Assembly (NCBI RefSeq): GCF_016903815.1
Contig: NZ_CP069973.1
Direction: 5' to 3' (one strand)
Source of the DNA: Escherichia coli
Lineage (GTDB): Bacteria; Pseudomonadota; Gammaproteobacteria; Enterobacterales; Enterobacteriaceae
DNA length: 64,000 bases
How positions within the stretch are numbered: position 1 is the first letter of the stretch; every line of letters starts with the position of its first letter. Shown here in pieces: positions 54,401 through 60,400 of this stretch. A program made the position numbers.

Positions 54401-57400
54401 GGTTGCAGCGTGCTCACGTTTTAACCCAGCCTGGCAGAGTTTATTCTCGATTAGCTGGTGGAGTGTTTCCCGACTGATTTTCATCTGTCTTCCTTTTTAA
54501 CGACGGTGTGAAGCATGACTGCAATTAACATACAGGGAAAATATCTGGATTATGTGATCCAGACAGGCAAAAAAATATAGTTAGAATTTATTTGATAATC
54601 CGCTCGCTTTTAACCTGGTTTTTAAAACAACCACGCTTATTAAAAAATAACACGTAATAGCCTGGCGGTTATTTGAATTCTTTTGTTAATAATCCCTGTG
54701 TGATATTCATCACCTTATTTACTCGTTGTCATCGATACCGTAATCGCCACATTAACACTGCTCGTGCAATTGCCATGGGTGCAATTTTTAAGGAGTTGTT
54801 ATGATCCACGCCTTTATTAAAAAAGGGTGTTTTCAGGATTCGGTCAGTTTAATGATTATTTCACGAAAACTCAGCGAATCAGAAAATGTTGATGATGTTT
54901 CCGTAATGATGGGTACGCCCGCCAATAAAGCGTTATTAGAGACCACAGGTTTCTGGCATGACGATTTTAATAACGCCACGCCGAACGATATTTGCGTGGC
55001 AATTCGTAGCGAAGCGGCGGATGCGGGGATCGCGCAGGCGATTATGCAACAGCTTGAAGAGGCGCTAAAACAACTGGCGCAGGGTTCAGGCAGCAGCCAG
55101 GCGTTGACGCAGGTGCGTCGCTGGGACAGTGCCTGTCAGAAATTACCCGATGCCAGTCTGGCGCTGATTTCAGTGGCTGGCGAGTATGCGGCGGAACTGG
55201 CGAATCAGGCGCTGGATCGCAACCTCAACGTGATGATGTTCTCCGATAACGTCACGCTGGAAGATGAAATCCAGCTCAAAACCCGCGCACGCGATAAAGG
55301 CTTGCTGGTGATGGGGCCGGACTGCGGTACGTCGATGATTGCCGCCACGCCGCTGGCTTTTGCTAACGTGATGCCGGAAGGCAACATTGGCGTCATTGGC
55401 GCTTCCGGTACCGGGATTCAGGAGCTGTGTTCGCAGATTGCGCTGGCAGGTGAGGGAATTACCCACGCGATTGGTCTTGGCGGGCGCGACCTCAGCCGTG
55501 AAGTGGGCGGCATCAGTGCGCTAACGGCGCTGGAAATGCTCAGTGCAGACGAGAAAAGCGAAGTGCTGGCATTTGTTTCAAAACCACCTGCCGAAGCTGT
55601 GCGTCTGAAAATTGTTAATGCCATGAAAGCAACTGGCAAACCGACGGTGGCGCTGTTTTTAGGTTATACCCCGGCGGTAGCCCGCGACGAGAATGTCTGG
55701 TTTGCCTCCTCGCTGGATGAGGCCGCACGCCTGGCTTGCCTGCTTTCACGCGTTACGGCGCGACGTAACGCAATAGCGCCTGTCAGCAGCGGATTTATTT
55801 GCGGTTTGTATACCGGCGGTACGCTGGCCGCTGAAGCGGCGGGATTACTTGCCGGACACCTTGGCGTGGAAGCCGACGATACCCATCAACATGGCATGAT
55901 GCTCGACGCCGACGGACATCAGATCCTCGACCTGGGCGATGATTTTTACACCGTCGGGCGTCCCCATCCGATGATCGACCCGACCTTACGCAACCTGTTA
56001 ATTGCCGATCTCGGCGCTAAACCGCAAGTGCGCGTGTTGCTGCTTGATGTCGTGATTGGCTTCGGTGCGACCGCCGATCCTGCCGCCTCGCTGGTGAGCG
56101 CCTGGCAAAAAGCCTGTGCCGCGCGTTCTGACAGCCAACCGCTGTACGCCATTGCCACGGTGACAGGTACCGAACGTGACCCGCAATGCCGCTCGCAGCA
56201 AATCGCCACGCTGGAAGATGCGGGGATCGCGGTTGTGAGTTCGCTGCCGGAAGCCACCTTGCTGGCGGCAGCGTTAATTCATCCGCTCTCGCCTGCCACA
56301 CAGCAACACACACCGTCATTACTGGAAAACGTCGCCGTGATTAACATCGGATTACGCAGCTTTGCGCTGGAGCTACAAAGCGCCAGCAAACCGGTTGTGC
56401 ATTACCAATGGTCGCCAGTCGCCGGCGGCAATAAAAAACTGGCTCGTTTATTAGAACGTTTGCAATAAGGGGTTTCCATGTTTACATCAGTGGCGCAAGC
56501 CAATGCTGCGGTTATCGAACAAATTCGTCGCGCTCGTCCACACTGGCTGGATGTGCAACCGGCTTCTTCACTTATCAGCGAACTAAACAAGGGCAAAACA
56601 CTGCTTCACGCCGGGCCGCCAATGCGCTGGCAGGAGATGACCGGACCCATGAAAGGGGCGTGCGTGGGCGCATGTCTGTTCGAAGGCTGGGCGAAAGATG
56701 AGGCGCAGGCGCTGGCAATACTGGAGCAGGGGGAAGTGAACTTCATTCCTTGTCACCATGTGAATGCCGTCGGGCCAATGGGCGGCATTACTTCTGCCAG
56801 TATGCCGATGCTGGTGGTCGAGAACGTGACCGACGGCAACCGGGCGTACTGCAACCTCAACGAAGGTATCGGCAAAGTGATGCGTTTTGGCGCTTACGGC
56901 GAAGATGTCCTGACTCGCCATCGCTGGATGCGCGATGTGTTAATGCCAGTATTAAGTGCGGCGCTGGGGCGCATGGAGCGCGGTATCGATCTCACGGCGA
57001 TGATGGCGCAGGGCATTACCATGGGCGATGAGTTTCATCAACGCAATATTGCTTCCTCTGCACTGTTAATGCGTGCGCTGGCCCCACAAATTGCTCGCCT
57101 CGATCATGATAAACAACACATCGCGGAAGTGATGGATTTCCTCAGCGTGACCGATCAGTTCTTCCTTAACCTCGCGATGGCTTACTGCAAGGCGGCGATG
57201 GATGCTGGTGCGATGATCCGTGCAGGCAGCATCGTCACGGCTATGACCCGCAACGGCAATATGTTCGGGATTCGGGTCAGCGGGCTGGGCGAACGCTGGT
57301 TTACTGCGCCTGTAAACACTCCCCAAGGTCTGTTTTTCACCGGCTTCTCGCAGGAGCAGGCGAACCCGGATATGGGCGATAGCGCAATTACCGAAACCTT

Positions 57401-60400
57401 TGGTATCGGAGGTGCGGCAATGATCGCAGCGCCTGGCGTAACGCGCTTTGTCGGTGCGGGTGGCATGGAAGCGGCCAGAACCGTTTCTGAAGAGATGGCG
57501 GAAATTTACCTTGAGCGCAATATGCAGTTGCAGATCCCCGGCTGGGATTTCCAGGGCGCGTGCCTGGGACTGGACATTCGTCGCGTGGTAGAAACCGGCA
57601 TTACGCCACTCATCAATACCGGTATCGCCCATAAAGAGGCGGGGATCGGGCAGATTGGCGCAGGCACTGTGCGGGCACCGTTGGCCTGCTTTGAACAGGC
57701 GCTGGAAGCACTGGCTGAAAGCATGGGGATTGGTTGAGGAACGCGCAATGACGATCATCCATCCTCTGCTTGCCAGCCGTAGCGCTCCGAATTATCGCCA
57801 GTCCTGGCGGTTAGCGGGCGTGTGGCGGCGGGCGATTAACCTGATGACGGAAAGCGGCGAACTGTTAACGCTGCATCGTCAGGGTAGTGGTTTCGGCCCC
57901 GGAGGATGGGTGCTTCGCCGCGCGCAATTCGATGCGTTATGCGGTGGATTATGCGGCAATGAACGACCACAGGTTGTGGCTCAAGGCATTTGCCTCGGAC
58001 GTTTCACGGTTAAACAGCCACAGCGTTATTGTTTGCTGCGTATTACGCCGCCTGCGCATCCTCAACCGCTTGCAGCGGCATGGATGCAACGCGCGGAGGA
58101 AACCGGGCTTTTCGGGCCGCTGGCGTTGGCGGCAGGCGATCCGCTGCCTGCTGAATTACGCCAGTTTCGTCACTGTTTTCAGGCCGCGCTCAATGGCGTT
58201 AAGACCGACTGGCGGCACTGGCTGGGTAAAGGGCCGGGATTAACGCCGAGTCATGATGACACGCTGACGGGAATGCTGCTGGCAGCCTGGTATTATGGCG
58301 CTTTAGATGCGCGCTCCGGTCGCCCGTTTTTTGCCTGTTCCGACCATCTTCAACTCGTTACCACTGCGGTGAGCGTTAATTATTTACGTTATGCCGCGCA
58401 AGGATATTTCGCCTCGCCACTCCTGCACTTTGTTCATGCTCTGAGTTGCCCGAAACGTACCGCTGTTGCGATTGATTCGCTGCTGGCGCTGGGACATACG
58501 TCAGGGGCAGATACGCTGCTGGGGTTCTGGCTTGGTCAACAATTATTACAAGGAAAACCATGAAAACACTGGTTGTAGCTCTTGGGGGCAATGCCTTGCT
58601 TCAGCGCGGTGAGGCGCTGACGGCAGAAAATCAATATCGCAATATCGCCAGCGCTGTACCCGCACTGGCGTGCCTGGCCCGTTCTTATCGGCTGGCGATT
58701 GTTCACGGCAACGGGCCACAGGTGGGGCTGTTGGCGTTACAGAATCTGGCGTGGAAAGAGGTAGAACCGTATCCGCTGGATGTGCTGGTGGCGGAAAGCC
58801 AGGGGATGATTGGCTATATGCTGGCGCAGAGCTTGAGCGCACAGCCGCAGATGCCGCCTGTCACGACGGTGCTGACGCGCATTGAGGTTTCGCCTGATGA
58901 TCCGGCGTTTTTGCAGCCAGAGAAGTTTATCGGTCCGGTTTATCAGCCAGAAGAACAAGAGACACTGGAAGCGGCTTACGGCTGGCAGATGAAACGTGAT
59001 GGTAAATATTTGCGCCGGGTGGTAGCGTCTCCGCAACCGCGTAAAATTCTCGACAGCGAAGCCATCGAGTTGTTGCTCAAAGAGGGGCATGTGGTGATTT
59101 GCAGTGGCGGCGGCGGTGTGCCTGTGACGGATGACGGAGCAGGGAGTGAAGCAGTGATTGATAAAGATCTCGCCGCTGCGTTGCTCGCCGAGCAGATTAA
59201 TGCCGATGGGCTGGTGATCCTCACCGATGCTGATGCGGTATATGAAAACTGGGGAACGCCGCAGCAACGTGCCATTCGCCATGCCACACCGGATGAGTTA
59301 GCGCCATTTGCCAAAGCCGATGGTTCGATGGGGCCGAAGGTAATGGCGGTGAGTGGCTATGTCAGAAGCCGTGGCAAACCTGCGTGGATTGGGGCGTTAT
59401 CGCGGATTGAAGAGACGCTGGCGGGCGAAGCGGGGACCTGTATTTCGCTGTAGTGATTGGGGTATTTGGCAAGAATTAAGGCTCTGAGAAAGATTCCAAA
59501 CCCCAAATAAGAACGCGGACAGTCCCCTCGCCCCTGTGGGGAGAGGGTTAGGGTGAGGGGGAAAACTGCTTGCGCATTAGCTTTTAAGCAGGTTTGTGCA
59601 CCAGGTTAACTGAACTTACTCTGCGCCCAAATCACGCCACTGGCATACTCCGGCGGCAGCAGCGGGATTAAGGCTTCCAGCGCCGCGGTCAGACGCGATG
59701 TGTCGCTGTCGGTCAAATTCAGATGCCCCACTTTACGCCCCGGACGGACTTCTTTGTCGTACCAGTGCAGATGCACCAGCGGCAATTTCAGCCAGTCATA
59801 ATTCACATCGCTACCAATCAGGTTGATCATCACCGACGGACTATTCACTACTGGTTGCGGTAACGGCAGATCGGTAATCGCCCGCAGATGCAGCTCAAAC
59901 TGGCTGATGCTGGCACCGTTTTGCGTCCAGTGACCACTGTTATGCACACGCGGAGCCAGTTCGTTGATCAGCAGACCTTGCGGGGTGACAAAGCACTCCA
60001 TCGCCATCACGCCCACATAGCCCAGCTCCTGCATAATCGCCGACAGCATCTCTTCGGCTTGCGCTTGCTGCTGCGCATTGGCCTGCGGGAAAGCGACGCT
60101 GGTACGCAAAATACCGTCCTGATGCAGGTTATGCGTCAGCGGATAAAACACGGTGCTACCATCAAAGCCGCGCGCGCCAACCAGCGACACTTCGCCAGAG
60201 AAGTTTATGCCCTGCTCGACAATACATTCGCCGTAGCATTCAGCCGGTAACTGTTCGGTTTCATCGGCGCGTAAACGCCATTGACCGCGTCCGTCATAGC
60301 CACCAGTGCGACGCTTAACAATCGCCAGCTCACCTAAACGCTTAAACACCGCAGGCCACTCGCTGCGATCGGCAAGTAACTGCCACGGTGCGGTCGGTAG

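Follow-up and report, generated by a model that had tools for sequence, protein, structure and literature searches.

Organization of the allFGHK locus

We analyzed the fdrA-ylbE-ylbF-ybcF cluster of Escherichia coli (allF, allG, allH and allK, respectively), together with the neighboring allantoin gene allD, in a 64,000-nucleotide (nt) stretch of contig NZ_CP069973.1 (assembly GCF_016903815.1), hereafter referred to as the window. The original prediction, which was made from the sequence alone, described the cluster at 54801-59453 as an intact, tightly packed four-gene operon. Our analysis bore this out: all four open reading frames (ORFs) are uninterrupted, with zero internal stops, and when ylbF is counted from its RefSeq ATG at 57748, gaps of 9 and 10 nt separate the first three genes, while ylbF and ybcF overlap by 4 nt (ATGA). 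The longest ORF form of ylbF begins at a TTG at 57655. A Shine-Dalgarno-like motif stands before each of the four starts (AAGGAG, AAGGGG, GAGGAA and AAGGAAAA). The locus is ordered allE-allC-allD on the minus strand, then fdrA-ylbE-ylbF-ybcF on the plus strand, then purK, with allD divergent from the operon and purK convergent with it. Its features are as follows.

53435-54484, minus strand: allD (ureidoglycolate dehydrogenase), a pseudogene by translation against K-12, with an 'internal stop' in the RefSeq annotation
54485-54800, 316 nt: divergent allD-allF intergenic region, which in K-12 holds the allF promoter and the fragments bound by AllS and phosphorylated ArcA (ArcA-P)
54801-56468, plus strand: fdrA = allF, 555 amino acids, from the six-frame ORF list
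56478-57737, plus strand: ylbE = allG, 419 amino acids, from the six-frame ORF list
57748-58563, plus strand: ylbF = allH, 271 amino acids, from the RefSeq ATG start
58560-59453, plus strand: ybcF = allK, 297 amino acids, from the six-frame ORF list
59454-59605, 152 nt: ybcF-purK 3' intergenic spacer, between convergent genes

Comparisons with an existing annotation used the RefSeq annotation of strain 222 (NZ_CP020516.1; urine, Boston), which shows 0 mismatches to the window over positions 42801-64000 and a single mismatch over 1-44165. This sole difference in the latter segment is at position 30521, which is T in the window and C in strain 222, so the window stems from a very near relative of strain 222 rather than from that record itself. 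An Rfam scan of the window found no RNA elements within 54485-59605.

The K-12 operon (b0518, b4572, b0520 and b0521) has the same gene order, lengths, gaps, overlap and flanks as that of the window, which differs from it by a nonsense codon in allD (W199*), eight substitutions in the allD-allF spacer, the 3' spacer and Lys260 of YbcF. Nucleotide identity over the operon is 97.06%, and the proteins, which are equal in length to those of K-12, are 98.2% (FdrA), 99.3% (YlbE), 97.8% (YlbF) and 98.7% (YbcF) identical. The ratio of silent to replacement codon differences from K-12 was 107:23 in the operon, and because this matches the ratio in the flanking allE, allC and purK genes (78:16 for the three together), there is no excess of replacements in the operon. 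Residues found only in the window, relative to a panel of nine genomes, were D47E in fdrA, R82C, S130G, S174T and N200H in ylbF, and R38C, A135T and T262M in ybcF, the last three of which are at sites where solved carbamate kinases differ from one another. Damaging lineage-specific substitutions were considered, and none of these window-only residues gave reason for such a call.

Protein families and function of the operon

FdrA scored 1038 bits over residues 1-555 against the NCBIfam model NF004760 (FdrA; cut-off, 433), and it matched the structure of K-12 FdrA (PDB 3DMY, 'Protein fdrA') with E = 7e-303. YlbE matched Pfam PF06545 (Oxamate carbamoyltransferase subunit AllG; 8e-98, 326.7 bits; cut-off, 27) and is a homologue of a solved structure (PDB 3CLQ, 9e-112). 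YlbF matched Pfam PF11392 (subunit AllH; 2e-29, 102.8 bits; cut-off, 25), and no homologue of this protein was found among solved structures. YbcF is a full-length match to carbamate kinase, with 616.9 bits against the equivalog NF006926 (cut-off, 416) and 423.5 bits against TIGR00746 (arcC; cut-off, 358). Its catalytic and nucleotide-binding set is present, with IDKD at 200-203 and GSMGPK containing Lys260, the reference residues being the Lys-Asp pair Lys209/Asp210 and the GSMxPK residue Lys271 of E. faecalis carbamate kinase. Because these family scores far exceed the curated cut-offs, the four ORFs are genuine genes rather than chance occurrences. The window thus holds three separate subunit genes of the AllF-AllG-AllH type (FdrA family, PF06545 and PF11392), all scoring above cut-off, and the gene context fits this type as well, since the operon is divergent from allDCE and has the carbamate kinase gene last. 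The identity of the operon is contradicted by none of the evidence.

The original prediction had presented the oxamate carbamoyltransferase and carbamate kinase function of this gene set as proposed; it has in fact been shown experimentally in K-12 (PMC11326118, PMC9843812). There, the four allFGHK genes were found by reverse transcription-PCR to form one transcript, and purified YbcF generated ATP from carbamoyl phosphate and ADP, which is carbamate kinase activity (PMC9843812). Purified K-12 AllF-AllG-AllH is an oxamic transcarbamylase, catalyzing the interconversion of oxalurate plus phosphate and oxamate plus carbamoyl phosphate, a reaction that is reversible in vitro (PMC11326118). Single or triple deletions of allF, allG and allH abolished the formation of oxamate from allantoin, which was restored only by supplying all three genes together (PMC11326118). 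The oxamate branch has been described as the sole route to the remaining ureide nitrogen in urease-negative E. coli, and it also gives the ATP of the pathway. Regulation has likewise been studied in K-12, where anaerobiosis and allantoin together raised expression of an allF'-lacZ fusion more than 38-fold, with AllS and ArcA required (PMC12535856). In electrophoretic mobility shift assays (EMSA), AllS shifted a fragment from -203 to -144 and ArcA-P a fragment from -142 to -83 relative to the allF start (PMC12535856).

Because the window proteins are 97.8-99.3% identical to those of K-12 and the layout is identical, we infer that the K-12 function transfers to the window. The four genes would then be cotranscribed from the allD-allF intergenic region, with a spacing that suggests translational coupling, and transcription would require anaerobiosis and allantoin, along with the activators AllS and ArcA, as in K-12. 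The allS gene is annotated as intact in the strain 222 sequence that is identical to the window. AllF, AllG and AllH together would form oxamate and carbamoyl phosphate from oxalurate and phosphate, and AllK would transfer phosphate from the carbamoyl phosphate to ADP, yielding ATP and carbamate, which would decay to NH3 and CO2.

An alternative assignment would place these genes in another pathway, with FdrA acting as an acyl-CoA synthetase or as a suppressor of ftsH mutations and with YlbE and YlbF being of unknown function. This assignment draws on the name 'acyl-CoA synthetase FdrA' given by the Prokaryotic Genome Annotation Pipeline (PGAP) and on the Pfam CoA_binding and Ligase_CoA domains that FdrA shares with the alpha subunit of succinyl-CoA synthetase. 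However, the resemblance to that subunit, a relative of FdrA in fold, is weak (52 bits against an equivalog cut-off of 336), and FdrA differs from it in being approximately twice as long and in acting with AllG and AllH. Newer PGAP and Pfam names follow the transcarbamylase, and both the genetics in K-12 and the enzymology of purified AllF-AllG-AllH identify an oxamic transcarbamylase (PMC11326118). We consider it very improbable that the operon serves a different pathway.

Two other systems resemble the allFGHK operon. The yahF-yahG-yahH-yahI cluster of K-12 has a DUF1116/AllG-family protein, YahG, encoded beside a carbamate-kinase-like protein, YahI, which is 39% identical to window YbcF and has the lysine of the motif in the form GSMLPK; YahF is presumably FdrA-like. 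This cluster differs from allFGHK in its locus, in its neighbor, which encodes the amidohydrolase YahJ, and in lacking an annotated AllH homologue over the part inspected. The arcB-arcC genes of the arginine deiminase pathway share the logic of the operon, in that a catabolic ornithine transcarbamylase splits a carbamoyl compound by phosphorolysis to give carbamoyl phosphate, from which a carbamate kinase belonging to the AllK family makes ATP at the substrate level. They differ in that the substrate is citrulline instead of oxalurate, and in that the transcarbamylase of the window has three subunits, AllF-AllG-AllH being without sequence similarity to the classical aspartate and ornithine transcarbamylases (PMC11326118).

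ylbE in K-12 and across E. coli

The original prediction also took ylbE to be frameshifted in K-12 MG1655, so that the window strain would differ in carrying the intact form. Comparison with K-12 records refuted this claim. In NC_000913.3, ylbE (b4572) is intact, with 1260 nt and 419 codons, and lies in the same frame and at the same relative position as in the window; in a resequenced MG1655 assembly it is also intact and in the same frame. A frameshift is present in the 2006 record of W3110, where ylbE has 1259 nt and is marked 'frameshifted'. Alignment of W3110 with MG1655 version 3 and the window showed the loss of one G from a GGGGG run at ylbE positions 248-252, in codon 84, bringing in a stop three codons further on; in the window, this run of five (G5) at gene positions 248-252 is intact. 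A second difference of W3110, the silent change GAG/GAA (A/G) at position 114, lies 138 nt from the frameshift site. These two sites agree with two differences from the old reference sequence that were reported upon resequencing, namely 547,694 A>G and 547,831 +G, with the remark that 'two mutations make ORF' (PMC5460176). Real K-12 stocks are without the ylbE frameshift of the old reference (PMC4759930, PMC3045373, PMC5460176), and ylbE+ has been reported both in MG1655 stocks and in NCM3722 (PMC4759930, PMC3045373).

Exact matches to the four-G (G4) allele of ylbE were confined to 4-5 of 5426 complete genomes; among the matches listed, the carriers were W3110, CIT, LIM and CAR. The coordinates of the matches in CIT, LIM and CAR are those of W3110 within one base, which suggests that the old reference served as the template for assembly of these three genomes. 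G5 is found in other K-12 assemblies (MG1655 CP032667, C600 and ER1709). The reading in which an intact operon sets this isolate apart from a ylbE-frameshifted K-12 can still appeal to the 2006 W3110 RefSeq record and to an older listing of ylbE as an MG1655 pseudogene (PMC5460176). Set against the intact gene of NC_000913.3 and of resequenced MG1655, the rarity of the G4 allele and the ylbE+ state of the stocks, this reading retains almost no credibility, and the claimed contrast with K-12 fails because it rests on an obsolete reference sequence.

The 4653-nt operon stretch matches 5423 of the 5426 complete E. coli genomes, with at least 80% of the query covered in 5407. For a check of the reading frames, eight genomes drawn from different levels of the identity ranking were compared with the K-12 records and with records of sequence type 405 (ST405), the lineage discussed below. 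Lengths and spacing were the same, and frames were intact, in 10 of 10 non-ST405 records (two of MG1655 and eight others), although for P470 this holds for three genes only. In that exception (NZ_CM195734.1, 1501-3202), fdrA is frameshifted, the match span exceeds the query by 34 nt, and allD is intact. A second ST405 genome likewise has four intact frames of unchanged length and spacing. Intact ylbE is the universal state and not a property of the window strain.

Intergenic spacers of the operon

The allD-allF spacer is identical to that of K-12 at 308 of 316 positions (97.5%). The eight substitutions are located at -195, -183, -169, -150 to -148, -135 and -107 (window 54606-54694). An 81-nt stretch that covers seven of the eight is exact in 278 genomes, and for this reason we regard the spacer haplotype as ordinary polymorphism. 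The possibility that it is an ST405-specific change was rejected, since it is found in 278 genomes as compared with 92 carriers of the allD amber codon.

On the other side of the operon, direct comparison showed that the ybcF-purK spacer is unrelated to the corresponding K-12 spacer, which consists of 194 nt of repeats resembling repetitive extragenic palindromic (REP) elements. A consensus scan for an operon terminator after ybcF revealed no convincing plus-strand site and fewer terminator-like sites than in shuffled sequences, and the fold of the 3' spacer was no more stable than those of shuffles (z = -0.62). The spacer also carries a G+C-rich imperfect palindrome (CCCCTCGCCCCTGTGGGGAGAGGG...).

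The allD amber codon and its predicted consequences

An amber codon in allD was also part of the original prediction and is real: a change of TGG to TAG (W199*) at 53888-53890 on the minus strand breaks the upstream step and leaves the downstream genes whole. The residues of AllD that contact NADH are Pro223, Lys224, Tyr226, Tyr303-Pro305 and Asp308 (PMC3527362), and the W199* truncation removes all of them. All other allantoin genes, i.e., allS, allA, allR, gcl, hyi, glxR, allW, allB, ybbY, glxK, allE and allC, are annotated as intact.

To describe the lineage that carries this codon, exact 81-mers were counted in the same 5426 complete genomes. The amber-centered 81-mer is exact in 92 of them and the 81-mer with TGG restored in 542; the amber is hence derived, having arisen on a haplotype that is common. 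Among the carriers are KY 1497 and WCHEC96200, which the literature assigns to ST405 and phylogroup D, and from this sequence relationship we infer that the window strain belongs to ST405. Over the 6019 nt from allD through ybcF, the 60 top-ranked genomes show 0-1 mismatches to the window. The sole within-lineage difference among these 60 is A135T in ybcF (G>A at 58962); it is found in the window and 15 other genomes, and the rest have Ala as in K-12. In one member of the lineage, WCHEC040047 (NZ_CP043295.1, 1581-2348), the insertion sequence IS1 lies approximately 286 nt upstream of allF and is accompanied by a 9-base-pair target duplication, GTGTGAAGC; its position is as follows.

54514/54515 (window equivalent): IS1 site of WCHEC040047, in the allD-allF spacer

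In the literature searched, no mention of the allD amber allele in ST405 turned up; of the papers that name both allD and ST405, one on sepsis isolates lists allD among the detected genes and another has passages on allD that deal with paralogues (PMC12928451), in neither case with the amber codon.

The product of AllD is oxalurate, the substrate of AllFGH. As a result of W199*, no oxalurate would be formed from ureidoglycolate, and the operon enzymes would be left without endogenous substrate, a defect of the pathway and not of the operon itself. Allantoin nitrogen would then be obtained only via AllB, AllC and AllE, and carbon via the AllA-glyoxylate-glycerate branch; because the genes for the first deamination steps and for the glyoxylate/glycerate branch are annotated as intact, both should still work. 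The expected phenotype would approximate that of an allFGH deletion, in which allantoin is consumed, no oxamate is formed and more oxalate appears, but it would differ in showing no build-up of oxalurate. That the operon is still whole would reflect a recent origin of the amber in a near-clonal lineage, with too little time for decay, and the operon is probably idle but undecayed in the amber lineage. Relaxed selection on the operon was considered as well and rejected, since the silent-to-replacement ratio relative to K-12 equals that of the flanking genes and since a test within the lineage is powerless at 0-1 single-nucleotide polymorphism (SNP) per 6 kb.

It could also be argued that the operon is still used despite the amber codon, whether through a suppressor or readthrough, through a paralogue of the Ldh_2 family, with exogenous oxalurate, or by action of AllK on carbamoyl phosphate of other origin; the retention of the genes would then be due to selection instead of recency. 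In favor of this hypothesis, no ST405 genome looked at has a lesion in any of the four genes, and an unrelated strain, NZ_CP060946.1 (411-1184; labelled 'O157:H7 str. EC10'), has lost allD through truncation by IS1 and has kept allFGHK intact. The in vitro reversibility of the transcarbamylase reaction (PMC11326118) may be counted on the same side. However, because lineage diversity is 0-1 SNP per 6 kb, the intactness of allFGHK is uninformative on selection, and the sole within-lineage coding change, A135T of ybcF in a 16-genome subclade, is non-synonymous. In addition, the W199* truncation takes out much of the NADH site, and established knowledge offers no alternative source of oxalurate in E. 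coli (PMC12535856). Continued use of the operon appears unlikely on this evidence.

Altogether, our results indicate with high confidence that the window carries the core E. coli allFGHK operon for the final, ATP-yielding part of anaerobic allantoin catabolism, undamaged and of the usual form, with its function carried over from K-12, and that it probably stands idle behind a recent amber codon in allD. Several points weigh against this interpretation. All eight substitutions of the allD-allF spacer fall inside the two 60-base-pair EMSA fragments of AllS and ArcA-P (-203 to -83). Identity of at least 99% across the operon is reached by 94 genomes, versus 92 with the exact amber 81-mer. Accessory regions of extraintestinal pathogenic E. 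coli can carry AllD-like (Ldh_2 family) paralogues (PMC12928451), which would favor continued use. Finally, the idle state of the operon is itself deduced from sequence.

Lysine 260 of YbcF

One of the four differences between YbcF of the window and that of K-12, N260K, falls in the GSMGPK motif. The codon reads as follows in the two sequences.

Window 59337-59339: ybcF codon 260, AAG (Lys)
K-12 NC_000913.3 551216-551218: ybcF codon 260, AAT (Asn)

Lys260 is present in the window, in the second ST405 genome and in eight of eight other non-K-12 E. coli, and Asn is present in both MG1655 records. Position 260 aligns with Lys in all five of five solved carbamate kinases; it corresponds to Lys271 of E. 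faecalis, by counting from Lys209/Asp210, and to Lys278 of the Giardia enzyme. In the Giardia and E. faecalis structures, the equivalent lysine forms salt bridges with the beta-phosphate of the nucleotide and with the catalytic Asp. The K-12 paralogues YahI and YqeA retain the lysine of GSMxPK. The 81-mer carrying K-12 Asn260 is exact in 357 of the 5426 genomes, with almost all of the 60 listed being identifiable as K-12 laboratory strains.

The Vmax reported for K-12 AllK is approximately 1.8 U/mg, lysates of the wild type and of the ybcF deletion strain were alike in activity, and the deletion was nearly phenotype-free (PMC9843812). This work, which is the sole enzymology of AllK, used the K-12 (Asn260) allele. 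We tentatively suggest that K-12 might carry an impaired copy of the operon through K260N in ybcF (allK) and not through ylbE, a proposal that has a fair amount to recommend it on sequence grounds and that we hold to be possible without yet favoring it. The AllK allele of the window may represent the canonical enzyme, and K-12 AllK may be a hypomorph.

Other features of the window

Outside the operon, the glxK-allE spacer (51253-51381) is 129 nt long, whereas the K-12 spacer, with an additional REP-like insert, has 227 nt. The Rfam scan of the whole window matched only two families, one of which, the STnc480 small RNA family, lies in this spacer (51309-51375, plus strand, 84.9 bits); the other is naRNA4, nucleoid-associated non-coding RNA 4 (22912-22989, minus strand, 71.9 bits). 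According to the strain 222 annotation, window positions 1 to approximately 16687 lie inside siiEA, a giant gene for a BapA-related adhesin, which is followed within 1-20025 by genes for a type I secretion ATPase and an HlyD adaptor. The same annotation places an RHS core protein gene at approximately 31897-36024 and an IS1 element at approximately 36075-36772. The siiEA region, the RHS gene and IS1 constitute accessory content beside the allantoin cluster.

Biological significance

The function and regulation of the allFGHK operon were already published in 2022-2025, and an intact allFGHK is the default state of E. coli. The allD W199* allele could be used to mark a near-clonal lineage to which published isolates of the multidrug-resistant clone ST405 belong. 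Carriers of the allele are predicted to have lost the oxamate branch and would provide a natural knockout with which to assess the contribution of this branch in the gut and urinary tract. If the tentative proposal for ybcF is true, the Vmax of AllK, the missing phenotype of the deletion and the missing difference between lysates would be K-12 artefacts, and natural Lys260 alleles would encode a much more active ATP-yielding step. K-12 allK would then possibly be an unrepresentative model of this kinase.

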